A stretch of DNA of 64,000 bases from Myxococcales bacterium (GTDB lineage: Bacteria > Myxococcota > Myxococcia > Myxococcales > 40CM-4-68-19): NCBI GenBank assembly GCA_036513415.1, contig DATBZA010000032.1, forward strand, positions 2,985 to 66,984. Direction: 5' to 3'. The position numbers and the translations under genes are program-made. Positions within the stretch are counted from its first letter, which is position 1, and every line of letters begins with the position of its first letter. A model generated the notes under the pieces. The model was not told the DNA's origin. It made no database searches and saw only the letters and a program-made list of their open reading frames with translations. This document shows, one piece after another, positions 8,959-58,066 of the stretch.

Positions 8959-8959
8959 C

Positions 8960-14941: not shown

Positions 14942-14997
14942 AGCGGAAGGGGAGACGGCGGCTCGCGCGGCTGCGCAGGCTCCGGGCGCGCTTGTTC

Positions 14998-27750: not shown

Positions 27751-27846
27751 TGAACGGTAATCGCCGCCCGGCCTATCTTCCGCTGTACCCACAGCTGTTC
27801 AGGTAGAGTAGAGGGCGGGCGCGCGCTCTGTTACGCTGGCCGACCG

Positions 27847-30674: not shown

Positions 30675-30862
30675 GCTTCATCCTTCCCTTCAACCGCAGA
30701 GCGCACAGAGCGCGCAGAGATTTTTGGGGGGGGTGATCATGGTGCCCCGTGCCCCCGGAGGTGCCCCGAACGTTCGGGGTGGCTCCACACCAACCCAACA
30801 AAGGCCTTCAGACGACGTATCCACCTCTGCGCGCTCCGCGCGCTCTGTGGTTGATCTGAAGC
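30675..30862 (-). repeat. Non-coding element A2 (family of GxxExxY-flanking inverted repeats)
   Basis: Minus strand begins gcttcagatcaaccacagagcgcgcggagcgcgcagagg; opposite arm tcaaccgcagagcgcacagagcgcgcagag at 30690-30719; 7 bp from purF stop. Confidence 0.88.
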
Positions 30863-30869
30863 GCCGGGC

Positions 30870-32348
30870 CTAGTTGCGGAGGATGGTGAGGTTCTCGGCC
30901 GCGCCCGTGGCCTTCCCCTCGCGCGGCCCATGCTCGCCGACCAAGGGCGCATCGGCCGCCGGCGGCGCCAGCTGCACCAGGTACTCGCCGGTGAAGCAAG
31001 CGTCGCAGAAGCCGCGCGGCTCCGCCTTGGCGGCCTCGTGCATTCCCTGCTGAGACAGGTACCCGAGCGAGTCCGCGGTGACGTACTTCGCGATCTCCTT
31101 CTCGGTGTGCGAGGCGGCGATCAGCTCGCTGCGCACCGGCGTGTCGATGCCGTAGTAGCAGGGCCACCGCGTCGGGGGGGCGCTGATGCGCAGGTGCACC
31201 TCGCGCGCGCCCGCGTCGCGGATCATCTTCACGATCTTGCGGCTGGTGGTGCCGCGGACGATGGAGTCGTCCACCACGATCACCCGCTTGCCGCGGACCA
31301 CGTCGGAAACGGGGTTGAGCTTGAGCTTGACGCCGAAGTGCCGGATCGATTGCGACGGCTCGATGAACGTACGGCCGACGTAGTGGCTGCGAATCAGCCC
31401 CAGGTCATAGGGAATGCCGCTCTGCTCCGAGTACCCCAGCGCCGCGGGCACGCCCGAGTCGGGGACCGGCACGACCACGTCGGCCTCGACCGGCGCCTCG
31501 ATGGCGAGCCGCTTGCCCAGCGCCTTCCGCGTCGCGTAGACGCTGCGTCCGAACACCTGGGAGTCGGGCCGGGCGAAGTAGATCAGCTCGAAGATGCACT
31601 TCCCGGCTCGCTGCGGCGATTGGGTCTGGTGCGTCCGCAGTCCGTGCTCGTCGACCCCCACCATCTCTCCCGGCTCGATCTCGCGGATGTACTCCGCCTC
31701 GATCAGGTCCAGCGCGCAGGTCTCGCTGGCGAAGACGGTGGCGCCGTTCTTCAGCCTGCCCAGGACCAGGGGCCGGAAGCCCAGCGGGTCGCGGACGGCG
31801 ACGATGCCCTTCTCGGTGAGGAAGAGCAGCGAGTACGCGCCGCGCACGTTCGCGAGCGCGCCGCGGATCCGCTCCTCGATGGTGCCCTCGCGCTGGTGGG
31901 CGAGCAGGTGCACGATCACTTCCGTGTCGCTGGTTCCTTGGAAGAGAGCGCCTCGTGCGGCGAGCTGCGCGCGCAGCTCCTCCGCGTTGACCAGGTTCCC
32001 GTTGTGCGCCACGGCGACATACCCTGCGGGGGTCCGCGCCACCATCGGCTGCGCGTTGGCCAGGTTGGACTGGCCGGCGGTCGAGTAGCGGGTGTGCCCG
32101 ATCGCCGAGCTTCCCGGCAACCCGGCGATGGCCTGCTGATCGAAGATGTCGGCGACCAGCCCCATTGCCTTGTGCAGGTTGATCTGGTTCCCGTCCCACG
32201 AGGCGATCCCGGCCGACTCCTGCCCGCGGTGCTGGAGCGCGTGGATGCCGAGGTAGGCGAGGTTCGACGCCTCGGCGTGACCGAACACGCCGAACACGCC
32301 GCACTCGTCGTGGAACTTGTCCTCGCCGTTCAGGATCGGGAGTCGCAT
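30870..32348 (-). CDS. purF: Amidophosphoribosyltransferase
   Basis: Propeptide then [31 protein letters not shown]. Confidence 0.97.
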
Positions 32349-32470
32349 CGGAGGGGCCGGAGGGTACAGTGGGAGGCGGGCTAGGGCAACACGGACGGAA
32401 CAACGCGGAATCACCGTGCATTCTGAAGATGCCGCAACCCTTCCGGCGGTGCGCGCGTACAATCGCTCCA

Positions 32471-33157
32471 ATGGACGAGAAGGAGAGCCGGATCGTGGAG
32501 GCGCGCATGAAGCTCCGCGAGCGCTTCCAGGGCAAGATGAAGGAGACGCCGGCGGCTGCGGATGCGCGCCCGCTGGGCCGTGGTCCTCCGAACCGCCACG
32601 GGATGCCGAAGCTGCCCGAGGGCCAGACCGTCACCAAGGGCTGGCCGGTGCTCGATCTCGGCCGCCAGCCCGACGTCAAGGTCTCCAAGTGGGAGCTGAT
32701 CGTGGACGGCGCGGTCGAGGAGCCGGTGCGGCTCTCCTGGAAGGACTTCCTCGCCCTCCCTCAGGTCAAGGACACCAGCGACTTCCACTGCGTGACCACC
32801 TGGTCGAAGATGGACGTCCAGTGGGAGGGAGTGCAGCTGTCGACGGTGATCGCGCTCGCCAGGCCGAAGCCGGACGCGACACATCTCATGACGCACGCGT
32901 ACGACGGGTACACCACCAACCTTCCGCTGGAAGAGGCGCTCAAAGATGACGTGCTGCTGGTCCACACCGCCGAAGGCAAGCCGCTGCCGGTCGAGCACGG
33001 CGGGCCGGCGCGCATCATCACTCCACAGCTCTACGCCTGGAAGGGAGCGAAGTGGATCCATCGAATCGAGCTTCTGACGCGGGACCGGCTCGGGTTCTGG
33101 GAGCTGCGCGGCTATTCGAATACGGCGCATCCCTGGCGAAACGATCGCTACTCCTAG
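32471..33157 (+). CDS. Sulfite oxidase-like molybdopterin-binding oxidoreductase
   Basis: [32 protein letters not shown]. Confidence 0.9.
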
Positions 33158-34308
33158 CGGTCCTGTTCGCGTCGTCGGCCCGGGCGGAGGCGCGGCAGAA
33201 CGTGCTGGAGTACGTGCACGAGAAGCTGCTGCAGGATCGATCGCTCGACGCGAGCAGGCGGCAGGCGATCGAATCCGCGATCAAGGAGCGGTTCGCGAAC
33301 TACGGCTTCAACGTCGTGAAGCCGGAAAAACCCGAGGACGCGCGGACGCTCCTCCACGTCATTTTCGAGGGCGTGCTCGACCGCGCCGACCCGGCCCGCA
33401 TCGCCGACGTGGGCTTCGCGGCGTACCGCGCGATCTGGCGGGGAGCGCCTGCGGACGCGGTCGACGGCATCGCGCTCTACGGCTACCAGAAGAAGATCCC
33501 AGCCGACTCCATCGCAACCTGGGCCAACGGATATCGCGACGGCGCCGAGGGCGGCGTGCCCGGCGACGTCATGGCGGACGCGATCCACGAGGCCATGCTG
33601 GGAGGCTGGCCGGATGCGTCGTTCAAGACCGTGAAGTGGGCCCTGGTCGACGCGGCCAAGTCGGGATGGGACACGCGTCTGTACGCCGCCTACATGCTCC
33701 AGGGCATGCGCAGGGATCCCACGCACCCCGGAGCGCTGCAGGCCGAGCTGCGGGCGAAGTTCTCCAGCGCGAAGACGCTCAAGACGGCGCTGCCCGATCC
33801 CGGTTACAAGGGCGCGTTCACCGTCGCGGTAGCGCCTCCGCCCACGGTGGTCTGGACGCCGGCGCCGCTGCCGAAGGAATTTCGCCGCCCGCCTCCCGCA
33901 GCTCCCCCTCCTCTGGCGCTGCCCGAACAGCCGCGGATCTGGCCGGGCCTGGAGCAGGCGGTGCGCAGCTACCTGGGGACGCCCTACGTGTGGGGCGGGC
34001 TGAGCCACCGCGGCATCGACTGCTCGGGCCTGACCATGAGCTCGTACCGGGAAGTCTCCATCGGGATCCCGCGGGTCTCGCGCCAGCAGTTCGCGACCGG
34101 AAAGCCGGTGCAGTCCGGCGAGCTGCGCGAGGGCGATCTCGTCTTCTTCGACACTTCCGGCAACGGGGTGTCGCACGTCGGGATGATGGTCGACGTGCCC
34201 AACCGCCGGTTCATCCACGCCAGCTCGTCGAACGGAGTGGTGGAGGCGGCGCTCGACGACACCTGGTTCCAGTCGCGCTATCTCGGCGCGAGGCGGGTGG
34301 TGCGCTGA
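33133..34308 (+). CDS. Secreted protein with C-terminal NlpC/P60 (C40) peptidase
   Basis: [28 protein letters not shown]; start uncertain (CTG 33133 or GTG 33052). Confidence 0.85.
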
Positions 34309-35540
34309 GGAAGGCGCTCCTCGCCGGCGCGCTGCTGGCGCTCGCCGCGGCCGCGCTCTTCTGCGCGGTGCCCTTGGGGACGGCGCAGCGGCTTCCGGGT
34401 ATCGCAGTCAACGGCAGGGTCGCGCTGGAGTTGCTGGGCGTGGGCTCGCTGCGCGCCGGCGCGGGCAAGGTGCGGATTGCGCTCGGTCCTCACCCGATCC
34501 TCGCCGGCTATCCGGGGAAGCGGCGCGCGGAAGACTCGAGGGAGCCGGTGTACGCGAGGGCCATCGCGCTGGAGGTGGAAGGGCTGCGCGCGCTGGTGGC
34601 CTCGATCGACACGCTGCTCGTGCCGGGCAGCCTGGAGGAGGAGGTGCTGCGCCGCGCGCGGCTGCCACCGCTCACCTGCCTCCTGCTCGCGGCCACGCAC
34701 ACGCATTCGGGCCCGGGCGGCGCGTGGGACAGCGTCATCGCCGGATGGTCGGGCGCGGGGCCGTTCGATCGGGCGCAACGGGATGCGATCGCACAGGCCG
34801 CGGCCGACGCGCTCAGGCAGGCGATCGACGCTCTCGGTCCGGCGGAGCTGCTGGTGGCACGAGAGGATTGGCCGGAGGGGCCGGCGCGGCCCCGAAGCGG
34901 AGGCCCCATCGACCCCCAGCTGGTAGCGCTGCGCGTTCGCGGGCCATCGGGGGAAGACGTGGCGACGCTGATCGACTACCCCATGCACCCCACCACCACG
35001 CCGCGCTCCTCGCGGCGGCTCTCGGCCGACTGGCCGGGCAAGGTGGCCGCGGCCCTGGAAGGCGCGCCGGTGCTGGTGGTCCAGGGCGCGGGCGGCAACG
35101 CGACCTGGGATCGGGCTGAGGACGTGGCGGCGGCGGTCGCCCGCGAGGCCGAGCAGCTCCTGCGCAGGGCGGAGCCAGTGCGGCACCTCCAGATCGGGTG
35201 CCAGGCGCGCCTGGTGGCCCTTCCACCCCCGCAGGCTTCGCCCGCGGTGCCCTGGCCGTTGCGGCGGGCGTTTGCCAACGCGATCGCGCTGACGCGGGAG
35301 CCCGCGGTGATCGAGACGCGCGTTCGCATCGGTCCACTGACGTTGGTCGGCGTGCCGGGTGAGCCGGTCGGGGAGCTCGGCCGGCGTATGTCCCCCGACG
35401 TGCTGGTCGGGCTCGCCGACGGCTATGCCGGATACGTGGAAACGTCAGAGCGCTGGGCCCAAGGCGAGGGAGAGGCTTCGCGCACCTGGTTCGGCCCGGG
35501 CCTCGCCGAGGCGCTTGGGCTATGGTCGGCGCCGCGATGA
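34305..35540 (+). CDS. Neutral/alkaline ceramidase-like protein
   Basis: [38 protein letters not shown]; hydrophobic N-terminus from CTG at 34305. Confidence 0.75.
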
Positions 35541-35756
35541 TCCTCGAGATCGCCGAAGAGGTCGCCACGGCGCTGCGCGAGCGCCGCCCGGTGGTGGCTT
35601 TGGAAACAGGATGTGACTCCGTTTCTGCTCGCGGCGCTGGCTGGGGCGACGGGCAACCGCAGCACCGCCGCTAATATCGAGCTTCTCGAGAACAATGCGC
35701 GGGTGGCGGCGGAAATCGCCGGGGCGATGCGCGTCAGTGATGCAGCCGGGCTGTAA
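35537..35756 (+). pseudogene. psuG: Pseudouridine-5'-phosphate glycosidase remnant with large internal deletion
   Basis: [24 protein letters not shown] (PsuG N-terminus) joined out of frame at ~35608 to [37 protein letters not shown] (PsuG C-terminus). Confidence 0.85.
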
Positions 35757-35796
35757 TCTGCCGGGCGCGCCAGCCCGGGGGGCGCTCGACCGGCGC

Positions 35797-35826
35797 TTGA
35801 CCCTACCCTCAGCCGGCAAGTATACG
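35797..35826 (+). promoter_or_regulatory. Candidate sigma70-type promoter of first S8 protease
   Basis: TTGACC-N18-TATACG. Confidence 0.4.
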
Positions 35827-35887
35827 CCTTCCCCGCACCGTTCGGCAGCCGCCCACCAACCTCTCCACCTTTTCCAGGGGGATTCCC

Positions 35888-38800
35888 GTGTCCCGGTCCA
35901 ATTCGCGCCCGCCGGTATCGGCGCTCGTTATTCGCAGAGCTCTACCCGGCCAGCAGTTGTCGGTTGTTCCGGCAATCCTCGCAATGATGCTCTGTTCTCC
36001 CGTGGGAGCGCTCGCCGCGTCCCGCGATGCGGGCGAGCCGCGGTCGAGCCTCTACATTGTTCAACTGCTCGAAGACCCCGCGGTCGCATACACGGGCAAT
36101 ATCCCGGGCTACAAGGCGACCAAGCCCGCCAAGGGCACGAAGATCAATCCGGCCAACCCGGACGTCGCGCAGTATGCGGGGTACCTGGATTCGCGCCACG
36201 ACCAGGTCGTCGCCAGCGTCGGCGGGCGAAAGGTCATGGACTACCGCTACACCTACAACGGCTTTGCGGCCGAGTTGTCGGCACTGCAGGCCGAGTCGCT
36301 GAAGAGCGCGCCCGGCGTGTTGGCCGTGAGCAAGGACGAAATGGTGTTCGCCGACACCTCGTCCACCCCGCATTTTCTCGGTCTGGACGCGCCGGGAGGG
36401 TTGTGGGCTCAACTCGGCGGCACCGGCTGCGCCGGCGGCGAGATCATCATCGGCGTCATCGACTCGGGCATCTGGCCGGAGAGCGCCAGCTTCGCGAAGT
36501 TGCCCTCGGAAGGAAATTGCAACCGGGATTTCCAGAGCATCAAGAGCTGGAGCGGCACGTGCGTGGCTGGTGAAGGTTTCACCGCCGCCAACTGCAACAA
36601 CAAGCTGATCGGCGCCCGGTACTTCAACGCCGCCTGGGGCGGCAACGACGCCATCGCGGCGTTGAGGCCGTGGGAGTTCGTCTCGGCCCGCGACTACAAT
36701 GGTCACGGCACGCATACATCTTCGACCGCCGGCGGAAACAATGGCGTAACGCCCACCGGTCCGGCGGCCGCATTTGGCAAGGTCAGTGGCATGGCGCCTC
36801 GCGCTCGCATCGCCATGTACAAGGCGCTGTGGTCTACACAAGATGCGTCCACCGCGAGCGGCTTCACTTCGGATCTCGTGGCGGCGATCGACCAGGCCGT
36901 GGCTGACGGTGTGGACGTGATCAACTATTCGATCAGCGGTACGCAGACGAACTTCCTCGACCCCGTCGAGGTGGCCTTCCTCTTCGCCGCGGATGCGGGC
37001 GTGTTCGTGGCGGCTTCGGCGGGCAACAGCGGCCCGACCGTCAGCACCGTCGCGCACCCCTCGCCGTGGATCACGACGGTGGCGGCCGGTACACACAATC
37101 GGAACGGCGCAGGTTCCGTGACCCTGGGCAATGGCACGTCCTACAACGGCGCTTCGGTGGCGGCTGCCGTGGGTCCAGCGCCCCTGATCAACTCGACGGC
37201 CGCGGGCCTGTCCGGCGCTGACTCCGAGCTGGTTCGTCTGTGCTTCTCGACCGACGATAAGGGGAATCCCGTCCTGGATCGAAGCAAGGTCGCGGGGAAG
37301 ATCGTGGTCTGCGACCGGGGCGTGAATGCCCGTGTGGACAAGAGCCTTGCCGTCAAGGGGGCAGGCGGCGTCGGCATGATCCTGCTCAATACCAGCCCGA
37401 ACTCGCTCAACGCCGACTTCCACTTCGTGCCCACGGTGCATCTGCCGGACACCAATCGAGCGGCCGTGCTCGCTTACGGGGCCACGGCCAACGCTTCAGC
37501 GAAGATCAATCAGTCGACGCTGACCTTCAAAGACCCGGCGCCGTTCACGGCTTCTTTTTCATCGCGCGGTCCGCTTCGTGCCGGTGGTGGCGACTTGCTC
37601 AAGCCTGACGTCATCGCTCCCGGCGTGGATGTCCTGGCCGCCGTGGCGCCTCCCGGTAATGCCGGCCTGGAGTTCAACCTGTACAGCGGCACCTCGATGT
37701 CCAGCCCCCACGTGGCCGGCCTGGGGGCGCTGTTGAAGGAGCGCCACTCCACCTGGACCCCGATGATGATCAGGTCGGCGCTGATGACCAGCGGCAGTGA
37801 CATCCTCGACGGCCCCAATACCAACCCGCTGGTGATCTTCAGGCAGGGTGCCGGTCATGTCGTGCCCAACACCGCTGCCGACCCCGGACTGGTTTACGAC
37901 TCCGGCTTCCTCGACTGGCTGGCCTTCCTCTGCGGCACGACCAATGGCGTCAGCGCCTCGACCTGCAACGCGTTGAAGGGCTCGGGCTACTCACTCGACG
38001 CCAGCGATCTGAACGGCGCTTCCATCGCTATCGGCGACATGGCAGGCATTCAGACCGTTACCCGCAGGGTGATCAACGTCGGGACCAAACGGGCGACCTA
38101 CACCTCGTCCGTCGCGGGGATGGCCGGAATCACGGTGGAGGTAAACCCGGCCTCGTTGACCCTCAACCCAGGTCAGACCGGGACGTTCAGCGTCAAGTTC
38201 ACGCGGACGACCGCTGCACTGAACGCCTACACCGGTGGACAACTGACCTGGACGGATGGTGCGCACAAGGTCCGCAGCCCGCTTGTCGTGCGCCCAGTGG
38301 CGCTCGCCGCTCCAACTCAAGTTTCCGGCACGGGCGGCGCCATCTCCTATGGGGTCACGTTCGGTTACAACGGCTCGTTCGCCGCGAGCGCGCGTGGACT
38401 CGCAGCAGCAGCTACGGTCAATAGTAGCGTGACGCAGGATCCGAACGGCACCTTCAGTCCGGGCGGACCGGGGACAGTGAGTTTTACGGTCAATGTGCCG
38501 TCGGGCTCCACCTACGCGCGTTTCTCGCTGTTCGATGCCAACAGCACGCCTGGGAGCGACCTCGACCTTTACGTGTACCAGGGAAACACCCGGGTCGGCG
38601 CCAGCACCGGCGGTACAGCAGAGGAGGAAGTCAACCTGCTCAGCCCGACCGGTGGGACCTATACGGTCTGGGTGCACGGCTTCGGAACCCCCGCGGGCGG
38701 GTCCACCTTCACGCTGTTCTCCTGGGCGCTCGGTTCGACGGCCTCCGGCAACATGTCGGTGAGCGCTCCGGCCACGGCCACCATCGGCGGGACCGGCACC

Positions 38801-38914
38801 ATCGGTCTGACGTTCAGCGGGCTGGCGGGTGGAACCAAGTACCTCGGATCGGTTGCGTACTCGGGCATCGCCGGTCTGCCAAACCCGACCATCGTGCGCG
38901 TGGACACGCCGTAG
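35888..38914 (+). CDS. Secreted S8 subtilase (I9 propeptide, PA domain, Fn3-like and PPC-like C-terminal domains)
   Basis: Triad VIDSG / HGTHTSST / GTSMSSPHVAG; GKIVVCDRG PA motif; DLDLYVY. Confidence 0.93.
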   Translation: MSRSNSRPPVSALVIRRALPGQQLSVVPAILAMMLCSPVGALAASRDAGEPRSSLYIVQLLEDPAVAYTGNIPGYKATKPAKGTKINPANPDVAQYAGYLDSRHDQVVASVGGRKVMDYRYTYNGFAAELSALQAESLKSAPGVLAVSKDEMVFADTSSTPHFLGLDAPGGLWAQLGGTGCAGGEIIIGVIDSGIWPESASFAKLPSEGNCNRDFQSIKSWSGTCVAGEGFTAANCNNKLIGARYFNAAWGGNDAIAALRPWEFVSARDYNGHGTHTSSTAGGNNGVTPTGPAAAFGKVSGMAPRARIAMYKALWSTQDASTASGFTSDLVAAIDQAVADGVDVINYSISGTQTNFLDPVEVAFLFAADAGVFVAASAGNSGPTVSTVAHPSPWITTVAAGTHNRNGAGSVTLGNGTSYNGASVAAAVGPAPLINSTAAGLSGADSELVRLCFSTDDKGNPVLDRSKVAGKIVVCDRGVNARVDKSLAVKGAGGVGMILLNTSPNSLNADFHFVPTVHLPDTNRAAVLAYGATANASAKINQSTLTFKDPAPFTASFSSRGPLRAGGGDLLKPDVIAPGVDVLAAVAPPGNAGLEFNLYSGTSMSSPHVAGLGALLKERHSTWTPMMIRSALMTSGSDILDGPNTNPLVIFRQGAGHVVPNTAADPGLVYDSGFLDWLAFLCGTTNGVSASTCNALKGSGYSLDASDLNGASIAIGDMAGIQTVTRRVINVGTKRATYTSSVAGMAGITVEVNPASLTLNPGQTGTFSVKFTRTTAALNAYTGGQLTWTDGAHKVRSPLVVRPVALAAPTQVSGTGGAISYGVTFGYNGSFAASARGLAAAATVNSSVTQDPNGTFSPGGPGTVSFTVNVPSGSTYARFSLFDANSTPGSDLDLYVYQGNTRVGASTGGTAEEEVNLLSPTGGTYTVWVHGFGTPAGGSTFTLFSWALGSTASGNMSVSAPATATIGGTGTIGLTFSGLAGGTKYLGSVAYSGIAGLPNPTIVRVDTP

Positions 38915-38961
38915 GCTAGAAGGGTCGTTCGGGCTTCGAACCCCGCCACGCCTTGTTGGAC

Positions 38962-38994
38962 GAAGGGCCGCCTCCGGGCGGCCCTTCACTTTTT
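38962..38994 (+). terminator. Rho-independent terminator
   Basis: gaagggccgcc-tccg-ggcggcccttc followed by acttttt. Confidence 0.85.
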
Positions 38995-39216
38995 GAAGCG
39001 GAATGTGTCAAAAATCATTCGAGCCAAATTTACTCGTCACGTCCTTTCCGGAAATCGCAACGTTCCCGCGCATCGAGGGCGCTGGGCATGGCTGGCAAAG
39101 GCGCGGGCCAAGCACGCAAACGCCGGGTGCGCGCAAGCCAGGTGTTTCGGATAAGTAGCTGATATTCCTATTTATTATAAGCGCCCGCCCGCCCGTCCAG
39201 ATTGCGGAAGGGGGGC

Positions 39217-39246
39217 TTGACCGGCCTTTGAGGGAGCGTTTATGGT
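39217..39246 (+). promoter_or_regulatory. Candidate sigma70-type promoter of second S8 protease
   Basis: TTGACC-N18-TATGGT, preceded by an AT-rich tract at ~39150-39180. Confidence 0.45.
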
Positions 39247-39387
39247 GCCGCGCCGTACTGTTCCACACAACCGTTCCGACGCGTGCGTTTCGAATCGCAA
39301 GCCGATCAGGAGATCGGCAGGGGGCGCGAAGTGCGCACGTCCGGTGCCGAGTCGAACTCGACTCGAAACAGCAGGGGAGAACACCAC

Positions 39388-42594: not shown

Positions 42595-42614
42595 TCGCAG
42601 CCGCAGCAGGACGC

Positions 42615-42650
42615 GAGAGGGCCGTCCCCTCAGGGCGGCCCTCTCTATTT
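42615..42650 (+). terminator. Rho-independent terminator
   Basis: gagagggccgtcc...gggcggccctctc then tattt. Confidence 0.7.
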
Positions 42651-42692
42651 GGTAGGGAACGATGGTTGGTCGGTGTAGGCGCCCTTCTTCTT

Positions 42693-43658: not shown

Positions 43659-43659
43659 C

Positions 43660-45894
<2,235 letters not shown>

Positions 45895-45992
45895 GGGGCG
45901 CGCAACATACCAGACCGCGCCCGATCCGTGGGCGACAGCGCTGGAAGTAAAGGTTGCAATTTTCGCCTGCTGGCGTTCGGATCGCGCGCTCG

Positions 45993-48086: not shown

Positions 48087-48087
48087 G

Positions 48088-49029: not shown

Positions 49030-49196
49030 CCGCGGCGGCGGGGCGCGAATCCACATCGGCGCATCCGTTGGCCGCTTCCCCTACATGTCGAGAATCGGCC
49101 GCCGATGCAGGCAAGCGAGCGAGCCCCTGACTCTCGCAGGTTTCGGCGTCAAAAACATTCTTGCTCCGCCCGCCGCCCTGGGGTCAGGATGGCTGC

Positions 49197-49904
49197 ATGG
49201 CGATCCGACCGGCGCAGGGCGCGGTCTTTCAGCGCCTGCACTCGGCCCACACCGACGTTCCGGCCGAGGTTGATTTGGTGCTGTACCACGACGTGCTCTG
49301 CACCTGGTGCTTCGTCGCGGACGCGCGCCTCGAGTACTTGCGCGACGAGTACGGACCGATGCTCCGCTGGAAGCTGAGGCCGTATCCGCTGCGTCCGGAC
49401 GACCAGATCCCGGACAAGAAGCAGCGCTCCGTGCTGGCGCGCCACTACCGGCGGCTCGCGCGCGAGCAGGAGGGGAAGGGCGTCAAGCCGGACCTGTGGA
49501 CGGGACAGGATCCACCGGCCAGCTCGGTCCCGCCGCTGGTGGCGCTCGAGGCCGCGCTCCCGCAGGGTGCCGACCTGCAGCGCGAGCTGCTGAAGGCCAT
49601 GCGACGAGCGGCATTCATGCAGGGCATCAACGTCGCCAGGCGCGACGTCCAGCTCGAGCTGGCGTCGCGAGTTGGACTCGACCTCGGCCGGTTCGTCGAG
49701 CAGCTCGACGACCCCCGGCTCGAGCAGGACGTGAACGACGCGGTCGAGGAGGCGGAGGCGCTCGGCATCAGGGGTGTTCCGGCCCTGGTGATCGGGGGCG
49801 AGTGGCTGATGCAGGGTTGCCGTGAGCTCGCGGAGTACCGGCAGGTGATCGACAAGTACCTGCGCGAGCGGGTCGCCTCGGCCCAACTGCGCGTGATGCA
49901 TTAG
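49197..49904 (+). CDS. DsbA/FrnE-family thioredoxin-fold protein
   Basis: CTWC active site; GIRGVP cis-Pro loop. Confidence 0.85.
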   Translation: MAIRPAQGAVFQRLHSAHTDVPAEVDLVLYHDVLCTWCFVADARLEYLRDEYGPMLRWKLRPYPLRPDDQIPDKKQRSVLARHYRRLAREQEGKGVKPDLWTGQDPPASSVPPLVALEAALPQGADLQRELLKAMRRAAFMQGINVARRDVQLELASRVGLDLGRFVEQLDDPRLEQDVNDAVEEAEALGIRGVPALVIGGEWLMQGCRELAEYRQVIDKYLRERVASAQLRVMH

Positions 49905-50017
49905 CCCCGGCCGCCGCAGGCGGCTCAGGGGCTACGCCTTAGCGCGAGCCAACTCCCCGGCCGCCGCAGGCGGCTCAGGGGCTACGCCTTAGCGCGAGCC
50001 AACTCCCCGGCCGCCGC
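49902..50017. repeat. REP-like repeat family B, exact 50-bp tandem (2.3 units)
   Basis: ccccggccgccgcaggcggctcaggggctacgccttagcgcgagccaact at 49905-49954 and 49955-50004 plus partial third unit. Confidence 0.92.
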
Positions 50018-50082
50018 CCGCGTATGGTGTCCCCCTTTCGGACTCGGCGTACCGCGTCGACTTCGACTATGCTCGCGGCGCC

Positions 50083-52239
50083 ATGGCACCCGTCCTTGCC
50101 TCGCTGATCATCCTCGCCGGGCTCGCCGTCTTCGCCTGGATCCTGTCCTACCGCGTCCGGCCGCTCTTCTTCGGGCGCAGGGACGTGCGCTGGGACGATC
50201 CGGCGACGCGCACCGAGAAGCTGCTGCTCTACGGAATCGGCCAGGGGCGGATGCCGACCAAGCCCGACCGGCCGGCGGGCATCGCGCACATCTGGATCTT
50301 CCTCGCCTTCATCGTTGCCCAGCTGGGGACGCTCACTTCATTCGGGCTCGCCTACGACCCGGGCTTCCACCTGCCGCTCCTCGCTCACGAAGCCCGCGCA
50401 GGGCAGCTCTACCTCTGGGTCAAGGACGTCATCGACCTGCTCGGCACCGCCGGGTGCGCGGTGTTCCTCTATTACCGGCTGGTGCAGAAGAAGGAGCGGT
50501 TGACGCTCTCCTGGGAGGGCGTGTTCATCCTCTGCATGATCCTCGGCGTCCTCTGGACGGACGTCCTCATCGATGCCGCGCTGCTGGCGAAGAGCGCGGG
50601 CGAGGTGCCCTGGTACCTGCCGGTCTCCGGCAAGGTCGCGACCTGGTTCCTCTACGGGATGTCGCCGCAGGCGGCCACCAACACGATGACGGCGGGAGTG
50701 CTGCTGCACATCGCCATCGTGATGTCGTTCCTCAACTTCCTGCCCCTGGGAAAGCACTTCCACATCATCACCGGGCTCCCGACCGTGTTCTTCCAGCGGC
50801 TGACGCCCATGGGCCAGCTCTCCAAGCTCGACCTGGAGAACAGCGAGAAGTTCGGGGTCGCGAAGCTGGCCGACCTGTCGTGGAAGGAGATCCTCGACAC
50901 CTACTCTTGCACTGAGTGCGGCCGCTGCCAGACCTACTGCCCGACGTACGACACCGGCAAGCCGCTCACGCACAAGGAGATGAACCGCGCCATCCGCCAC
51001 CACGCGCAGGAGATGGCGGAAAAAATGCCGCTGCCGCTCGCACAGCTCGCGCGGCGCCTCAACCGGATCCGCCCGGTGACCGGCGGCGGACATTCGGACG
51101 GGCAGGAAGGCCATGGCGGGCACGCGGGGAGCGATCCGGCCACCGGCTCCGCGGGGGCCTTCGCGCAGAGCTCGCTACAGCTTCCCGCCGAGCTGATCGA
51201 GCAGATGCCTCCTCTGGTGGGCAACGAGGGCGGCGTCATTCCCGACGAGACCGTCTGGGCATGCACGACCTGCGGCTGGTGCGAGCAGGCCTGCCCGGTC
51301 TTCATCGAGCACCTCCCGCGGATCGTCGACATGCGCCGCAATCTCGTCCTGATGGAGAGCCGATTCCCCGAGGAAGCCGCGCGCGTCTTCAAGGGAATGG
51401 AGACGCAGGGCAATCCCTGGGGCATGGGCAGCAACCGGCGCGCGGAGTGGTGCGCGGATCTGGAAATCCCCGTCGCCGGCTCCCTGGATCCGGCGACCCT
51501 GAAGGACATGGAGTACCTCTTCTTCGTCGGCTGCGCGGGCAGCTTCGACGACCGGCAGAAGCGGGTCTCTCGCGCGCTGGTGAAGATCCTCAGGGCCGCG
51601 AAGGTGAGGTTCTGCATCCTGGGGGAGGAGGAGACTTGCAATGGCGATTCCGCCCGCCGGCTCGGGAACGAGTACCTCTTCCAAGCGCTCGCGCAGCAGA
51701 ACGTCGAGACGCTGAACCGATACCCGGTCAAGAAGATCATCACCCAGTGCCCGCACTGCTTCAACACGCTCGGGCAGGAGTACCCGCAGTTCAACGGGCA
51801 TTTCCGGGTCCTGCACCACGCCGAGGTGATCGCGCAGCTGGTGGCGGACGGACGGTTGCGGCCGGGGGAGGCGCAGCTGAGCGAGCCCGTCACGTACCAC
51901 GACAGCTGCTACCTCGCGCGCCACAACGGGATCAGCGAGGCCCCGCGCCAGGCGCTGGTATCCCTGGGCATCCAAGTGCGCGAAATGGAGCGCAACCGCA
52001 CCGAGACGTTTTGCTGCGGAGCCGGTGGAGGACGTATGTGGCTGGAGGAGACGCTCGGCCAGCGCATCAACCAGAACCGCGTGAACGAAGCGGCCAGGAC
52101 CCTCGGCGGCAAGGGAACGGTCGCCACCAGCTGCCCGTTCTGCCTGACCATGATCAAGGACGGGATCGGGGAGACGGGCCGGAGCGAGCAGATGGACGCG
52201 AAGGACATCGCCGAGCTCGTGGCCCAGGCCCTCCCTTGA
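50083..52239 (+). CDS. FadF/HdrD-like membrane Fe-S oxidoreductase
   Basis: N-terminal TM helices; CTECGRCQTYCP and CTTCGWCEQACP; CCG domains (YHDSC, CCGAGGG, CPFC). Confidence 0.9.
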   Translation: MAPVLASLIILAGLAVFAWILSYRVRPLFFGRRDVRWDDPATRTEKLLLYGIGQGRMPTKPDRPAGIAHIWIFLAFIVAQLGTLTSFGLAYDPGFHLPLLAHEARAGQLYLWVKDVIDLLGTAGCAVFLYYRLVQKKERLTLSWEGVFILCMILGVLWTDVLIDAALLAKSAGEVPWYLPVSGKVATWFLYGMSPQAATNTMTAGVLLHIAIVMSFLNFLPLGKHFHIITGLPTVFFQRLTPMGQLSKLDLENSEKFGVAKLADLSWKEILDTYSCTECGRCQTYCPTYDTGKPLTHKEMNRAIRHHAQEMAEKMPLPLAQLARRLNRIRPVTGGGHSDGQEGHGGHAGSDPATGSAGAFAQSSLQLPAELIEQMPPLVGNEGGVIPDETVWACTTCGWCEQACPVFIEHLPRIVDMRRNLVLMESRFPEEAARVFKGMETQGNPWGMGSNRRAEWCADLEIPVAGSLDPATLKDMEYLFFVGCAGSFDDRQKRVSRALVKILRAAKVRFCILGEEETCNGDSARRLGNEYLFQALAQQNVETLNRYPVKKIITQCPHCFNTLGQEYPQFNGHFRVLHHAEVIAQLVADGRLRPGEAQLSEPVTYHDSCYLARHNGISEAPRQALVSLGIQVREMERNRTETFCCGAGGGRMWLEETLGQRINQNRVNEAARTLGGKGTVATSCPFCLTMIKDGIGETGRSEQMDAKDIAELVAQALP

Positions 52240-53099
52240 GCGGCCTGGTCACAGTCCGGCCCTTCGAGATGGCCGACCTCGACGCCGCCGCGCGCTTCTG
52301 CGACGCGGCGCGCGCTCTCGACCCTGCGGTGGAGGCGTTTGGCGAGCGCCTGGAGTCGATAGCGAGAGGTCCCCGGGCCGTCCTCGACCTCTGGCGCGTC
52401 GCCGCGGGCGAGGACGGCGGGCTGTACGGCGTTGCGTTCGCGGCCGTGCGCGAATCGGCGCGCGCACCCGTCTACGATTTCTACGCCGCTGTGCATCCTT
52501 CGGTCCGGCGCCAGGGCCTGGCGCGCGCGCTCAGCGAGCCAGCGGTCGGAAACGGCGCGACGCTCCGGGCCCGGGTCCGCGACGACGCGAGCGCCGGTCG
52601 AGCATTCCTCCGGGCGATGGGGTTCTCCGAGACCGGGGCGCAGCTCGTGCTGCAATGGAGCGGGGCCCGGATCGATGCGCGCCGGGTCCCCGCGCTGCGC
52701 ATCCGGCATGCCACGCGCCGGGACGAGCAGGTGCTCACTTCGCTCTCGGAGCAAGTCTGGGAAGGGACTCCGGATGCCTTCCTCTCGCGACCGGACGAGA
52801 TCGTCCAGCTCTTTTCGGAGGAGGGCCGCAGCGTGCTGGTGGCGCAATCCGAAGGACGGCCGATTGCGTACCTCTCCGGCGTGGAGCTCGGGCGCACGCT
52901 GGGCATCGAGGAGGTGGGCGTCCTGCCGCAGTTCCGGCGAATGGGCGTGGCGCGCTTGCTGCTCGCGCACGCGCTCCAGAAGAGAGAGGGCGCGGTGATC
53001 ACCGTCGGGGAGTCGAACATGCCCGCCCGCGCGCTGTACCGCTCGCTCGGCTTCCGCCAGTCCACGCGGCGCCTGCTGATGGAGCTGAGGCATGGATGA
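52236..53099 (+). CDS. Tandem GNAT acetyltransferase
   Basis: VHPSVRRQGLA and VLPQFRRMGVA motif A twice; NMPARALYRSLGF; TTG start overlapping upstream stop. Confidence 0.82.
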   Translation: MSGLVTVRPFEMADLDAAARFCDAARALDPAVEAFGERLESIARGPRAVLDLWRVAAGEDGGLYGVAFAAVRESARAPVYDFYAAVHPSVRRQGLARALSEPAVGNGATLRARVRDDASAGRAFLRAMGFSETGAQLVLQWSGARIDARRVPALRIRHATRRDEQVLTSLSEQVWEGTPDAFLSRPDEIVQLFSEEGRSVLVAQSEGRPIAYLSGVELGRTLGIEEVGVLPQFRRMGVARLLLAHALQKREGAVITVGESNMPARALYRSLGFRQSTRRLLMELRHG

Positions 53100-53119
53100 G
53101 CGACGGCGCGAAGAGCCTT

Positions 53120-54412
53120 TCAGGAGGCGCGCGTCGCGGTCGGCGGCGCCGACTTGGAGCGGGCCACGCGGACCAGTCGCACGCGGCGGTCGTCGCGCTG
53201 CACCACCGTCAGCTCCAGGCCGCCGATGTAGAAGCGATCGCCCATCTGGGGGATCGCCCCCGCCGCGGAATTGAGCAGGCCTCCCAGGGTCTCGAAGTCG
53301 CCCTGGTTCGGCAGCTTCGCCCCGAGCGACTCGTTGAGGTCGTCGACGCGGACTTCCGCGCGGACCAGCGCAGTTCCGTCCGGGCCGAACTGCGGCGCCG
53401 GCCCCTCCTTGTCATGCTCGTCGTGGATCTCGCCCACGATCTCCTCGAGGATGTCCTCGAGCGTGACGATCCCGGAGAACCCGCCGTACTCGTCCACCAC
53501 CATCGCGAGCAGGGACCGCTTGTGCTGCATCTCGCGCAGGAGCTCGCCCACCGGCTTGGTCCAGGGGACGAACAGGGCCGGCCGCACGATGTCCTGGAGG
53601 ACGATCAGCTCCGGATGCGCCATCAGCGGAATCACGTCCTTCGCGTGCAGCACCCCTTTGATGTGGTCGAGGTCGCCGTCGTAGACCGGCATGCGCGTGT
53701 GACCTTCCTCGGCGAGGAGGTCGATGACTTCCTGGGGCTTCGCGTCGAGGGGCACGCCGACCACGCGCGTCCGCGGGACCATGATCTCCTTCGCCGTCCG
53801 CTCCGCGAACGAAAAGAGCCCGTGCACCAGCTCCGGGGAAGGGGCCCCTGCGCCGCCCCCGCGCGCCTCCTCGCTGAGCATCTTCTCGATCTCTTGCAGC
53901 GGCAGGCGCGGCGGCGTGTAGCGGGCGGTGGCGCCACGACGCAGGAGGAGCGCATCGAAGATCCTCAGGAGCAAGCGCACCGGGCCCCGCAGCATCATGC
54001 AGACCAGGTAGGTCGATCCGGCCAGCGCCAATGCCCAGCCGAGCGGACGGGCCAGGGCGAGCGAGCGCGGAGCGAGGTCGATCACCAGCGCCACGACGCC
54101 CGCGAGCAAGCCGGCCAGCAGCTGGAGCGTGCTTCGCGAGCTCGAATGCACGCCCGCGCGCAAAAGGATGTCGCCGGCCACGATCGCGCAGGCCACGGCG
54201 GCGAACGCCAATAGCGCGGAGGAAGCGCCGCGCAACGCAGCCGCGGTGGTCTCCGGCTCCTGCTTCAGCTTCAACAGCCAGCGCACGCGATGCGGGTGGT
54301 CCCGCTCGAGAGCGCGAAGCTCGTCCTCGCCGACAGCGAGCAAGGCCGTATCGGCCGCCTGCAGCAAGGCGCGGCCTGCGAGGGCGGCGCCCGCCGCCAG
54401 GAGCTCCAGCAT
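53120..54412 (-). CDS. CNNM/CBS/CorC (TlyC hemolysin-family) protein
   Basis: N-terminal TMs, EIMVPR, HTRMPVY, VVDEYGG...TLEDILEEIVGEI, ETLGG. Confidence 0.92.
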   Translation of the reverse strand: MLELLAAGAALAGRALLQAADTALLAVGEDELRALERDHPHRVRWLLKLKQEPETTAAALRGASSALLAFAAVACAIVAGDILLRAGVHSSSRSTLQLLAGLLAGVVALVIDLAPRSLALARPLGWALALAGSTYLVCMMLRGPVRLLLRIFDALLLRRGATARYTPPRLPLQEIEKMLSEEARGGGAGAPSPELVHGLFSFAERTAKEIMVPRTRVVGVPLDAKPQEVIDLLAEEGHTRMPVYDGDLDHIKGVLHAKDVIPLMAHPELIVLQDIVRPALFVPWTKPVGELLREMQHKRSLLAMVVDEYGGFSGIVTLEDILEEIVGEIHDEHDKEGPAPQFGPDGTALVRAEVRVDDLNESLGAKLPNQGDFETLGGLLNSAAGAIPQMGDRFYIGGLELTVVQRDDRRVRLVRVARSKSAPPTATRAS

Positions 54413-54517
54413 TGCCGCAGAGCGTAGTCGGCCCGGTGCGCGCCGCCAACGGCTGTTTTTTTCCAGCAGTCCTGCAGATGCCATTGCGACTGTGGTTGCA
54501 CCCGGCTAAGAGGCGGC

Positions 54518-54670
54518 ATGCGCACGCTCGTCCTCCTGCTCCTGGCTGCCTGCGGGGAGAGCGCCAGCGCGCCGATCGCGGTCCAGCGGGGCATGGCCAG
54601 CGACATCGGGCGAGTGACCCCCAGCTGCAGGCGGAGTAGGGCGCTTGAAACGGCGGCCCCACGGCATTAG
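54518..54670 (+). CDS. Possible 50-aa lipoprotein or truncated remnant
   Basis: [19 protein letters not shown] lipobox after AAGAGG; below ORF-track cutoff. Confidence 0.4.
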
Positions 54671-54697
54671 GGTGCGCGCCTTCGGAGGCCCAACAGC

Positions 54698-54940
54698 ATG
54701 AAAGCGCGCGTCGTCGTCACGCTCAAGAAGTCGGTGCTCGACCCGCAGGGCCAGGCCGTGACCCGCGCCCTCGGTTCGCTGGGCTTCAGCGAGGTCAAGG
54801 ACGTCCGCCTCGGCAAGATCATCGAGTTGGACCTCGAGGCCAAGGACCCGGCGGAAGCGAAGAAGCGGGTCCAGGACATGTGCGAGAAGCTCCTCGCCAA
54901 CACGGTCATCGAAGAGTATCGGGTGGAGGAGATCCGCTGA
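54698..54940 (+). CDS. purS: FGAM synthase subunit PurS
   Basis: [21 protein letters not shown]. Confidence 0.96.
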
Positions 54941-55632
54941 TGCTGTTCGCGGTGGTCGTCTTTCCCGGCAGCAACTGCGACCACGACGTCTACCACGTGG
55001 CCAAGCACGTCCTGGGCTGCGCGGCCCGCTATGTCTGGCACAAGGATCGCGACTTGCGGGGCGCGGACGTGGTGGTGCTGCCCGGCGGCTTCTCCTACGG
55101 CGACTACCTGCGCACCGGCGCGATCGCGCGCTTCTCGCCCATCATGGAGGAGATCCGCAAGTTCGCCCACCGCGGCGGGCACGTGATCGGCATCTGCAAC
55201 GGCTTCCAGATCCTGTTGGAGGCGGGGATGCTGCCCGGCGCGATGCGCCGGAACGACTCGCTCAAGTACGTCTGCCGCGACGTGCACCTCAAGGTCGAGA
55301 ATGCGATGACGCCCTGGACGCGGAAGTACGCCAAGGGCGACGTGATCCGGATTCCCGTCGGCCACGGCGACGGGAACTACTACATCGACCCCGAGGGCTT
55401 GCGCCGGCTGGAAAGCGAAGGTCAGGTCGCGTTCCGGTACGTCGACCCGGCGGGCATCCGCGGGGTCTCGGGCATGAACCCGAACGGCTCCCTCGGCGAC
55501 GTCGCGGGCATCACCAACGCGCGCGGAAACGTGCTCGGCATGATGCCCCACCCCGAGCGCCTCGCGGAAGGGGTGCTGGGGGGCGAGGACGGGCGCCGCC
55601 TCTTCGAAAGCATCGTCGAAGCCGTCGGCTGA
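54940..55632 (+). CDS. purQ: FGAM synthase subunit PurQ
   Basis: [32 protein letters not shown]. Confidence 0.97.
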
Positions 55633-55652
55633 CGATTCACTCGACGGACCTG

Positions 55653-55833
55653 CAGATCAAACGCCGAGCACGCCGAGCACGCCGAGGTGGAAACGTCGTC
55701 TCAAGAAGTCATTTTTTTGGGTTGGTCTCTGCCAACCCCCGACCGTTCGGAGCAACTCCGAGCGCCGCAGCTGGCGAGACGATCACCCCCCAAACCTCGG
55801 CGTGCTCGGCGTGCTCGGCGTTTGAAATGAAGC
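55653..55833 (+). repeat. Non-coding element A3
   Basis: Perfect 32-bp inverted arms 55657-55688 / 55794-55825 (tcaaacgccgagcacgccgagcacgccgaggt). Confidence 0.9.
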
Positions 55834-55848
55834 AGCGGTTTTCTTTTC

Positions 55849-56316
55849 CTAGCTTCGGCGGCTGCGCTTGGCGTGGACGCGGGGGGTGGTCCACTCCTTG
55901 CGCTCGTGGGGCTTTTTGGCGCCTTCGGGGAGCGCGTTGAGCGCGCGACGCAGGCGCCCGTGGGCCATGACCACGTCGGGAGCGCTCTGGAGGAGAGGCG
56001 CGTACTTGTCCCAGAACGGCGACCCGCCCGCCTGCGTGAGCCGATTGATCTCCTGACGCACTCCGGCCACGGTTCCGGGCGGCAGGAGCTCCTGCGTCAG
56101 AAGTGAATCGAGGTCGACGATCAGCTCGCTCATCGGGTGGAGCCAGGCGAAATAGGGGTCCTCTGTGAGCAGCCGCAGCATCTGTCCTGGCCCGCCCGCC
56201 GGCCCCCGGTCGCGCTCGTACGTCTTCCGGACGGCCTGGACCAGTGCGCGATGGACTTCGCGCAGCGCCGCAGCCGCCTCCAGCAACCCAGGCTTGTGCG
56301 TACCTTCCCCGGTCAT
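55849..56316 (-). CDS. Hypothetical protein
   Basis: 155-aa ORF filling the gap, DPYFAWLHPMSELIVDLD; co-oriented with upstream gene. Confidence 0.7.
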   Translation of the reverse strand: MTGEGTHKPGLLEAAAALREVHRALVQAVRKTYERDRGPAGGPGQMLRLLTEDPYFAWLHPMSELIVDLDSLLTQELLPPGTVAGVRQEINRLTQAGGSPFWDKYAPLLQSAPDVVMAHGRLRRALNALPEGAKKPHERKEWTTPRVHAKRSRRS

Positions 56317-56325
56317 GCCCCTAGT

Positions 56326-57789
56326 TTATGCCGGGACGGGCACGGTGGCGGCGGGATCGAGTTGCTGCTGCGGGAACTCGACCAAAGGTGGACCCTTCCA
56401 GCGCCGCAACTCCGCCGATCCGGAGGTCACCGCCACGTGCGGGAAGCCGTCGCTCGAGCGGCCGGGCGTCCAGGAGCCGAGATTGAAATAGAGGGTGCCG
56501 TTCCCGACGGGCTCGGCCATCGCACGGTGGCTGTGGCCCATCACGATGTACTTCACGTCGAAGATCTGCGCGACACGCCGCGCTGCCTCTTGCAACATGG
56601 GGTGCGCGTCGGTCCGGCGGCGCTTGCGCAAGAGCGCGTTCAGGGCGGCGAAGATGATCCCGACGCAGGTCAGCGCGCCGGCCTTCGCCCAGAACCCGTC
56701 CACCGCGTAGGTCAGGCTCCAGGCGGTGAGGAGGCTGGCGACCGCCAGCAGCATCCGGTCGAGGTAGAAGAGCTGCATCGAATCGAACAGGCTCTGCTCC
56801 GCCGGCTGGGACGCCGTCTCGGCGAGCTGCTGCGCCTGGTTGTCCGTGCCCTGGAATTTCGTGAGGAGCTGGCGCACGTGGGCGTTGCGGTCCACCTTGG
56901 GCGACAGGGCCTTGTCCGCCGCGCGCGCGAACGCCCGCGAAATCTTCAGGGACTGCCGGACCATCGGGTAGATGACGCGGAAGACCATCACGAAGTAGTC
57001 GGCGGCGACGCGCAGCGGGTTCCCCGCCTTGAGCACCCAGTCCAGGTACTCCTTCAAGCCCCAGGTATCCACGTCGTCAGCGAGGTCGACCTGTTCGGTG
57101 TAACGGTTCACGAAGTAACGCAACACCTTCGAGCTGAGCGGAAGCTCGATCTCGGTGTCGTCGTTGTGCGCGGAGAAGAAGTCGGTCTGGACCGAGTAGT
57201 GGTCGTGCGCATGCCCGTGCTCAGCATAGAAGAAGCCGGGCTCCAGGTAGAACCAGTCGTGAAATTCGACTAGCCTGTCGATTTTCCGACGGGGGGCGCC
57301 GCTGCGCTCGGCGAGAATCCGGCGGAATTCCTCCTGGACCGCGGGCCAGCGCCATTCAGAATCGTGATTCCCACGGATGATGTGAAGGGAATTTCCCCTG
57401 TGGACAAAAAGGGCGAGCGCGTCAAAGACCGTGGGGTGACGCTCGGCCGTGCGCCGCAGCTTCCAGACGCATTTCGGCTCGGTGGGAGCGAGGCCCAGCG
57501 CGCGCTCCTCCGTTGAAATCTCGAAAGGAACCGGCTCCTTCGGAACCAAGGTGACGGCGACGAAATCGACGATGTCCCCGTTCAGGATCAGGCGCCAGGG
57601 CTTGCCATCTTCGCGGTGGGTGGCGTGATAGCTGAGGAAGGAGGCCAGCGGCCCGTCGGTCGGCCGCGGCTTGTCGAGCTTGTTCCCGGCGCGGAGGTCG
57701 CAACCCAGGTGCAGGTCCGAGATGGCGAGCAGGTTGTGAGGCCGCTCCGAAAGCGACCTGACCCTCCGCCACATCCGCCCGAGTCCCAT
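56326..57789 (-). CDS. Calcineurin-like metallophosphoesterase with membrane insertion
   Basis: SDLHLG, NGDIVD, GNHD, EHGH, GHSH motifs. Confidence 0.85.
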   Translation of the reverse strand: MGLGRMWRRVRSLSERPHNLLAISDLHLGCDLRAGNKLDKPRPTDGPLASFLSYHATHREDGKPWRLILNGDIVDFVAVTLVPKEPVPFEISTEERALGLAPTEPKCVWKLRRTAERHPTVFDALALFVHRGNSLHIIRGNHDSEWRWPAVQEEFRRILAERSGAPRRKIDRLVEFHDWFYLEPGFFYAEHGHAHDHYSVQTDFFSAHNDDTEIELPLSSKVLRYFVNRYTEQVDLADDVDTWGLKEYLDWVLKAGNPLRVAADYFVMVFRVIYPMVRQSLKISRAFARAADKALSPKVDRNAHVRQLLTKFQGTDNQAQQLAETASQPAEQSLFDSMQLFYLDRMLLAVASLLTAWSLTYAVDGFWAKAGALTCVGIIFAALNALLRKRRRTDAHPMLQEAARRVAQIFDVKYIVMGHSHRAMAEPVGNGTLYFNLGSWTPGRSSDGFPHVAVTSGSAELRRWKGPPLVEFPQQQLDPAATVPVPA

Positions 57790-57859
57790 CGGTATACGCC
57801 CCCTCCCTTGCAGGGAACGTATGAGCAAGCCTCATGCCGTAACTGGGAAAGAGGGCGAC

Positions 57860-58048
57860 GCTTCAGATCAAACGCCGAGCACGCCGAGCACGCCGAGGTG
57901 GAAACGTCGTCTCGAGAAATCACTTTTGGGGTTGGGTCGGTGGTAGCCCCGACCCATCGGAGCAACTCCGAGGCCGCGGTTGGCGAGATGATCACAACCC
58001 CCCCAACCTCGGCGTGCTCGGCGTGCTCGGCGTTTGAAAGGAAGGATC
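57860..58048 (+). repeat. Non-coding element A4
   Basis: Begins gcttcagatcaa; perfect 32-bp inverted arms 57868-57899 / 58006-58037 identical to A3 arms. Confidence 0.9.
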
Positions 58049-58066
58049 AGACTACTTTTCAGGGAG

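Follow-up and report, generated by a model that had tools for sequence, protein, structure and literature searches.

This work concerns a family of palindromic repeats in a 64,000-nt stretch of DNA from a Myxococcales bacterium (assembly GCA_036513415.1, contig DATBZA010000032.1, positions 2,985 to 66,984 of the forward strand; hereafter the window), where four elements, A1 to A4, are bounded by similar inverted arms and one of them, A1, encloses an open reading frame (ORF) of the GxxExxY family. The source genome of the window, designated G000, comprises 5.29 Mb at 68% G+C in 192 contigs. The elements, their arms and the ORF lie as follows.

8960–9417, minus strand: A1, the full element, arms with the GxxExxY gene inside the loop
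8960–9001 and 9376–9417: arms of A1, 42 nt, 95% complementary
9001–9369, minus strand: GxxExxY/PDDEXK_3 ORF of A1, 122 aa, TTG start
30682–30862, minus strand: A2, medium-class, non-coding, with CGCAGAG-type heptamers
30683–30719 and 30825–30861: arms of A2, 37 nt, 84% complementary
55650–55833, plus strand: A3, medium-class, non-coding, between two convergent genes
55650–55688 and 55794–55832: arms of A3, 39 nt, 92% complementary
57860–58045, plus strand: A4, medium-class, non-coding
57861–57899 and 58006–58044: arms of A4, 39 nt, 92% complementary

The original prediction, made from the window alone, had described A2, A3 and A4 as non-coding relatives that share the arms of A1, and it was correct in placing all three, the sole correction being that A2 is better delimited at 30682–30862 on the minus strand. 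In the four elements an arm starts with GCTTCAGATCAA (or CCTGCAGATCAA) and continues with three 9-mers followed by GAGG, the far end being the reverse complement; the 9-mer units are ACGCCGAGC in A3 and A4 and CCGCAGAGC-like in A1 and A2. A2 to A4 have in common these inverted arms of about 40 nt (37–42 nt and 84–95% complementary when A1 is included) together with a conserved interior, and A1 carries the same arms round the GxxExxY gene. The interior blocks and the tail common to A2 and A4 that had been reported are visible in our alignments. In A4, pairing reaches outward to about 57848–58062 through an AAAG...CTTT box. More generally, an arm is built of a short foot (GCTTCAGATCAA in G000, TTCACC or TTAACC elsewhere) and three tandem heptamers of consensus CRCNRAG with a period of 8–11 nt, the other arm is its reverse complement, and the loop is bordered by T and A runs. 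As RNA, the arm stem is predicted at -126 kcal/mol (z = -9.1), and a scan of positions 8850–9650 returned neither a promoter nor a terminator. In metagenome runs the contigs end at the arms, and the RNA run X20 yielded short pieces only, which are uninformative on transcription. One DNA contig of the soil-metagenome run X1 joins 55644 to 55819, so that 174 bp of A3 (55645–55818) are gone; its depth is about that of the flanking genes, and it may reflect a deletion that occurs naturally or else the path taken by the assembly.

The stop codon of the A1 ORF touches the inner edge of one arm and its start comes after the GAGG-TTTTTTGG of the other. The product matches TIGR04256 at 147.7 bits (cut-off 35) and PF13366 at 143 bits (cut-off 22), and in a 22-sequence alignment that includes it, G19, E22, Y25, D62, E72 and K74 are invariant, the catalytic residues E22, D62 and E72-x-K74 being among them. 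A second GxxExxY gene of G000 (C137:71073–71411) is devoid of arms. At least 8000 homologues were found by homologue search; among plasmid records the gene is seldom met (8 of 72,556), and it matched none of 50,697 phage records. The survey PMC3424549, in its accessible part, lists the PDDEXK_3 family with function unknown. No solved structure is related by sequence to the protein. The AlphaFold model is of middling confidence (mean pLDDT 67.6), Foldseek returned no match to it at E <= 0.001, and a wide structure search (VIA) gave a best Z of 6.1, with PD-(D/E)XK folds at Z 4–5; these include splicing endonucleases, Hjc, Bax1 and restriction enzymes, with the RNA-acting tRNA splicing endonucleases at Z 4.8–5.0 and I-Bth0305I at Z 4.2, matches that are too weak for a PD-(D/E)XK subfamily to be chosen. 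It is worth mentioning that an ATG at 9424–9426 (minus strand) lies 7 nt beyond the arm and shares the reading frame of the ORF across the entire arm, because the 9-nt period preserves the frame. Starting there would extend the N-terminus by MVQASDQPQSAQSAQRFFG; several database relatives are annotated with similar extensions (MGNDSDQPQSAQS...), and the same in-frame ATG occurs in the congener G013.

The prediction that four copies in one window imply many in the genome was borne out, since an iterated nhmmer search recovered 96 arm copies in G000, which resolve into 38 paired elements and 20 unpaired arms, some of the latter continuing into a truncated interior. The arm pattern matched 76 times in this genome and its reversed version not once, and the pattern is therefore not a product of chance. 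The pairs fall into 15 short elements (91–124 bp), which consist of arms and a T-run/A-run loop, 22 medium elements (174–205 bp) of the A2–A4 type, and a single element of 458 bp, namely A1. All 22 medium elements hold one oriented interior of about 105 nt, and one interior common to 22 loci means that gene-less copies must have multiplied as such. A1 is the sole arm pair in G000 that encloses a gene (1 of 38), and removal of that gene leaves a loop resembling that of the short class. Because no arm pair encloses more than this 458-bp GxxExxY unit, no larger insertion sequence (IS), a parentage that the original prediction had itself raised, uses these ends.

Apart from A1 the family is gene-less, as had been claimed for A2 to A4, and all 38 pairs are intergenic, none lying within an ORF as called by a crude GC3-based script. 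For 37 pairs an ORF was called on either side; 19 of these are in convergent, 16 in co-directional and 2 in divergent settings. Most pairs stand 0–30 nt from the ends of the neighbouring ORFs, mostly gene 3' ends. Unpaired arms adjoin the ends or starts of long ORFs; one lone arm (G000:C162:13507–13545) stands 5 nt after a long-ORF stop with the same AAATGAAACC junction as the GxxExxY end in A1. Many arm flanks hold TAA stop codons within a GTAAAG box, a stop codon that would be uncommon in a genome so rich in G+C. With respect to a prior description, Rfam gave no match at gathering score in the window, rRNA included, and for ten GxxExxY loci and window positions 55500–58200 it gave only sub-threshold matches (miRNA-hairpin, group II intron and one small-RNA model). 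A group II intron match of 35.4 bits, against a gathering score of 40, was found in a metagenome-assembled genome (MAG) of Pirellulaceae, just 3' of a GxxExxY element's right arm (L099:1505–1574).

Are these elements insertions? The three genes flanking A3 and A4 are syntenic in 18 congeners, and in all eight congeners inspected for presence or absence, as the original prediction had proposed, both sites are empty; in G012, two stop codons stand only 2 nt apart at the empty site. Empty sites in eight out of eight relatives indicate that A3 and A4 were inserted. In the congener search, matches to the 105-nt interior came from other G000 copies alone, and congeners matched nothing beyond arm-length stretches. 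Additional information on the ends comes from G061, a genome of the phylum sample described below, in which six near-identical 131-bp copies have sharp ends and four of the six are flanked by exact 4–5-bp direct duplications (TCAA, CTGA, GTTG, AACTT), which none of 30 mismatched-partner controls show; another element of G061 has a 9-bp duplication.

The association between arms and gene extends well beyond the window. The genus contains two types of GxxExxY gene, A1-like and C137-like. Inverted arms border the A1-like genes at all four loci with both ends visible, those of G003, G005 and G007 having the same arm build with other units (CGCGAAG, or CACGGAG/CGCGGAG), and at the two cut loci, in G006 and G013, the upstream arm is present before the contig ends. 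No arms were found at the C137-like paralogue or at the partial loci L016 and L020 of the genus. We then consider a cross-phylum set of 80 GxxExxY loci, in which two archaeal MAGs are represented besides many phyla of bacteria. An inverted-repeat score of at least 16 across the gene is reached at 26 of 80 loci and at none of 153 shifted controls (control maximum 13). At least two tandem CRCNRAG heptamers in the expected orientation occur upstream of the gene at 49 loci, downstream at 58, on either side at 67 and on both sides at 40, whereas distant control windows contain them in 0 of 73 cases upstream and 1 of 73 downstream. The same arm architecture thus flanks GxxExxY across phyla, and these counts support a general link between gene and arm. 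Two arrangements are encountered, the gene lying either in the loop or between two complete hairpins. Paralogues in one genome differ in their heptamers; G226 has CGCAGAG, CACAGAG, CACAGAT, CGCAAAG and CRCGGAT. A one-to-one pairing of the G061 gene paralogues with hairpin subfamilies was considered and rejected, both genes carrying CACAGAG arms and the CGCAGAG subfamily being without a matching gene. Some hairpins hold other material: in G013 a CACAGAG-type hairpin is nested in the loop of a CGCAAAG-type hairpin (L133, G013:C602:17940–18250), and in G338 two loops (L211, L212) contain a GTAG-tagged REP-like palindrome (REP, repetitive extragenic palindromic) and a third (L210) an unrelated 114-aa ORF with a signal-peptide-like start.

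Within the arms, the heptamers are the conserved part. Over 41 alignable loci, mismatches affect 34 of 845 heptamer columns versus 89 of 324 spacer columns, a comparison that is partly biased in that the heptamers were found by pattern. In G061 and G224, spacers vary from copy to copy and, within a single element, from arm to arm, and the heptamers are fixed. Wobble mismatches on the sense strand of the 41 independent loci are evenly distributed, with G-U versus A-C counts of 10 versus 13 in heptamers and 20 versus 22 in spacers. The arms of the 22 medium copies show 10 G-U-type versus 34 A-C-type mismatches, from which nothing is concluded, since these copies are related and the excess lies in shared arm variants. 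Conserved heptamers and unbiased wobble accord better with sequence-specific recognition of the heptamers than with selection on an RNA stem.

The original prediction had further proposed to check whether element abundance follows gene presence. Bursts of hairpins were counted in genomes most of which are MAGs (the unpublished G188 and G251 enter the tallies only), and the fixed 9-nt-period pattern misses other periods and heptamer variants. Within the genus, only G000 (63 matches) and G013 (55) show a burst of the 9-nt-period pattern, and both have an arm-flanked gene. In a sample of 201 genomes of the phylum, bursts are found solely in G000 (68 matches) and G061 (224), and a gene scoring at least 130 bits solely in G000, G061, G043 and G140. 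A second sample, of 121 genomes around G224, represents an independent proteobacterial order, in which 15 genomes have at least 14 matches, the next highest having 7, and 18 genomes carry the gene. Ten genomes combine gene and burst, 8 have the gene without a burst, 5 a burst without the gene and 98 neither; bursts accordingly occur in 10 of 18 gene-positive versus 5 of 103 gene-negative genomes (odds ratio 24.5; Fisher p 7e-7, or 3e-6 without the seed genome, values that overstate the association because related genomes are not independent). Gene-less hairpin bursts are thus enriched in gene-bearing genomes, as these samples support. The gene itself stays at one or two copies beside 20–110 hairpins in G000, G061 and G224; G224 has two genes and about 45 hairpins, G061 two genes and about 110 hairpins.

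The best explanation of A2 to A4 is that they are gene-less members of a palindromic family whose full form is A1. The most economical account of the whole is a palindromic mobile element that encodes its enzyme, GxxExxY, and whose gene-less derivatives this enzyme moves in trans, an account that we regard as having an even chance of being right. The PD-(D/E)XK nuclease is the candidate enzyme, and its role, that is, binding, cleavage and which partner moves which, is inferred. The nuclease would recognise the heptamer arrays on both arms and would make DNA breaks by which the element is moved or copied. It could act in trans on gene-less copies, as the REP-associated tyrosine transposase (RAYT) does for REPINs (hairpins formed by REP doublets) or an IS for transposable elements of the miniature inverted-repeat type (MITEs). 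Copies might then persist in the few bases between gene ends, often convergent, where a long hairpin would do little harm.

Several observations weigh against this account. The five gene-less burst genomes of the order of G224, namely G253 (44 matches), G270 (57), G273 (14), G299 (20) and G338 (28), are genuine counter-examples, unless binning dropped the gene; they make up 5 of the 15 burst genomes, and abundance in genomes lacking the gene is what the original prediction had named as contrary evidence. Conversely, eight gene-positive genomes of the same order have no burst, and neither do G003, G005, G006 and G007, all with an arm-flanked gene, under the 9-nt-period pattern. In G000, one element of the 37 has a target duplication, where the controls average 1.3, and tests with fixed offsets and then with boundaries taken from the nearest copies were both no higher than controls. 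The heptamer variant barely tracks the protein tree (32 changes versus a shuffled mean of 37.9 and minimum of 31, with 21 of 92 rows unlabelled and left out), and the 122-aa protein is without a separate DNA-binding domain. Finally, Y1 transposase homologues occur in all seven burst-bearing or congeneric genomes searched for them (G000, G004, G012, G013, G061, G224 and G226).

The last point bears on a different account, in which Y1 transposases of the RAYT/IS200 type, or some other enzyme of the host, mobilise the hairpins as REP-like repeats, and GxxExxY is carried as cargo unrelated to them. Matches to the Y1 family PF01797 number 9 in G000, 39 in G013, 12 in G061, 3 in G224 and 10 in G226, and their presence in every genome searched would permit mobilisation in trans by Y1. 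REP sequences, according to the accessible part of PMC3733652, measure 20–40 bp and carry a GTAG or CGTC tag at one end, and some arms have GTAG or CGTC in their outer box, as the medium class does in its inner box. Still, none of the nine Y1 loci of G000 is near an arm, C179 being the only contig that holds both, more than 60 kb apart, and the non-burst genomes G004 (13 matches) and G012 (5) carry PF01797 too. HUH single-strand transposition is not known to leave 4–5-bp target duplications such as those of G061, and the adjacency of gene and arm across phyla would be left unexplained, so that we judge this account decidedly improbable. As a separate observation, the 39 PF01797 matches of G013 compare with 5–13 in three congeners. 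A rather unlikely though better placed explanation is that GxxExxY behaves as a hitch-hiker: the hairpins would spread otherwise, and GxxExxY, as a selfish nuclease gene, would cut gene-less hairpins and be copied into their loops by repair through arm homology. It is in line with homing that the gene sits exactly at the loop apex, that A1 without its gene leaves a short-class-like loop, that loops accept other inserts (L133 in G013; L210, L211 and L212 in G338) and that five burst genomes are without the gene. Homing should nevertheless fill many hairpins, while G000 has one gene-bearing against 37 gene-less pairs and G224 and G061 have two genes each beside their many hairpins; one or two genes among dozens of empty hairpins make homing a poor fit, and many genes lie between two complete hairpins rather than inside one.

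Selection at the RNA level has to be weighed as well. The arms could form a long transcript stem that serves as terminator, stabiliser or RNase III site, comparable to the ORF-enclosing intervening sequences of 23S rRNA, copies being kept for this function. The very stable predicted stem given above and the position of elements at gene 3' ends speak for it, as do the tRNA splicing endonucleases among the weak best fold matches and, in the accessible part of PMC4990558, a Coxiella stem of terminal inverted repeats that has an ORF inside and is cleaved by RNase III. The spacers between heptamers are, however, often non-complementary, G-U pairs are not in excess over A-C on the sense strand, no Rfam family matches arms or elements, and the origin of new copies is not explained; we consider this reading the least probable of the three.

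It is tempting to go one step further and to hypothesize that GxxExxY (PF13366) is the nuclease or transposase of pan-prokaryotic palindromic mobile elements with tandem CRCNRAG arrays, a generalisation that we hold tentatively, as slightly more apt to fail than to stand. If it were true, REP/RAYT would have a counterpart, a second partnership of that kind with a restriction-endonuclease fold in place of the HUH fold, and a very widespread small protein family would gain a testable function. It would account for large intergenic hairpin populations in several phyla and would explain how soil and water bacteria came by their long hairpins in the intergenic DNA at gene ends. Alongside REPIN/RAYT, the persistence of repeat-plus-nuclease systems could then be studied in a second one of independent evolutionary origin. 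The heptamer arrays provide a simple signature for annotating the elements and for explaining assembly breaks. In the searchable literature, which takes in few subscription journals, we found no published link of GxxExxY to flanking repeats, and a prior description may exist; in the MITE survey PMC11602168 there is no occurrence of nuclease, hairpin or PDDEXK.

Two other palindromic families were noticed in G000. At least ten matches to TIGR02436, the four-helix-bundle "23S rRNA intervening sequence protein" family, are near-identical copies within long inverted repeats of GAC/GGC-type short repeats; several are at contig ends and several have a single TGA in frame. They make up a second element of G000 in which an ORF lies within a palindrome. 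The other is an unrelated small family (TAGCCCCGGC...CTCAGGGGCTA), often in tandem pairs about 48–50 nt apart, whose 11-base core occurs 32 times in G000 and which also flanks the TIGR02436 elements. Their positions are:

contigs C12, C39, C23, C157, C114, C75, C55 and C104 of G000: TIGR02436 elements L101 to L108
2752–2849 of the window: small palindromic family
14997–15027 of the window: small palindromic family
27667–27766 of the window: small palindromic family
49905–50004 of the window: small palindromic family

The original prediction had likened the elements to RAYT/REPIN or IS/MITE pairs, a likeness that stands for the hairpin repeats, the many intergenic copies and the flanked gene and fails for the features that define both systems, because neither a Y1 nor a DDE enzyme is involved. 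What they have in common with MITE/IS pairs is inverted repeats at the termini, gene-less copies that retain both ends of the complete element, and polymorphism of the insertions. Target duplications, a further MITE trait, are seen in the young G061 subfamily (4 of 6 copies versus 0 of 30 controls) and are undetectable in G000 (1 of 37 versus a mean of 1.3). A DDE transposase is missing, no unit bounded by arms exceeds 458 bp, and in G000 GxxExxY is the one gene that arms enclose, with no parent element of known transposase sharing the ends. The 23S rRNA intervening sequences of Leptospira and Coxiella (S23p) also place a small ORF within long terminal inverted repeats and have a patchy, horizontally spread distribution, as far as the accessible part of PMC4990558 describes them; the elements studied here differ in lying between protein-coding genes, with no rRNA in the window, in encoding another protein family and in having numerous gene-less copies. 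Free-standing PD-(D/E)XK homing endonucleases are likewise small selfish nucleases of the same superfamily, but here there is no intron or intein context and no single conserved target gene, and heptamer arms stand on both sides. With regard to REP/REPIN-RAYT systems, the enzyme has the PD-(D/E)XK fold instead of HUH, and three tandem heptamers make up arms of about 40 nt where those systems have 20–40-bp REPs. GTAG or CGTC is present in the flanking boxes of only some copies. The gene, moreover, frequently occupies the hairpin loop, one subfamily has short target duplications, and in G000 no Y1 gene adjoins the arms despite nine PF01797 matches, the arm-flanked gene being the PD-(D/E)XK nuclease. 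What the two systems have in common is two inverted units that form a hairpin and occur in many intergenic copies (38 pairs in G000), tens to hundreds of such palindromic repeats beside one or a few small nuclease genes flanked by the same repeats, a mostly chromosomal location, as the plasmid and phage counts above illustrate for GxxExxY, and repeat populations that can remain where the gene is not found.

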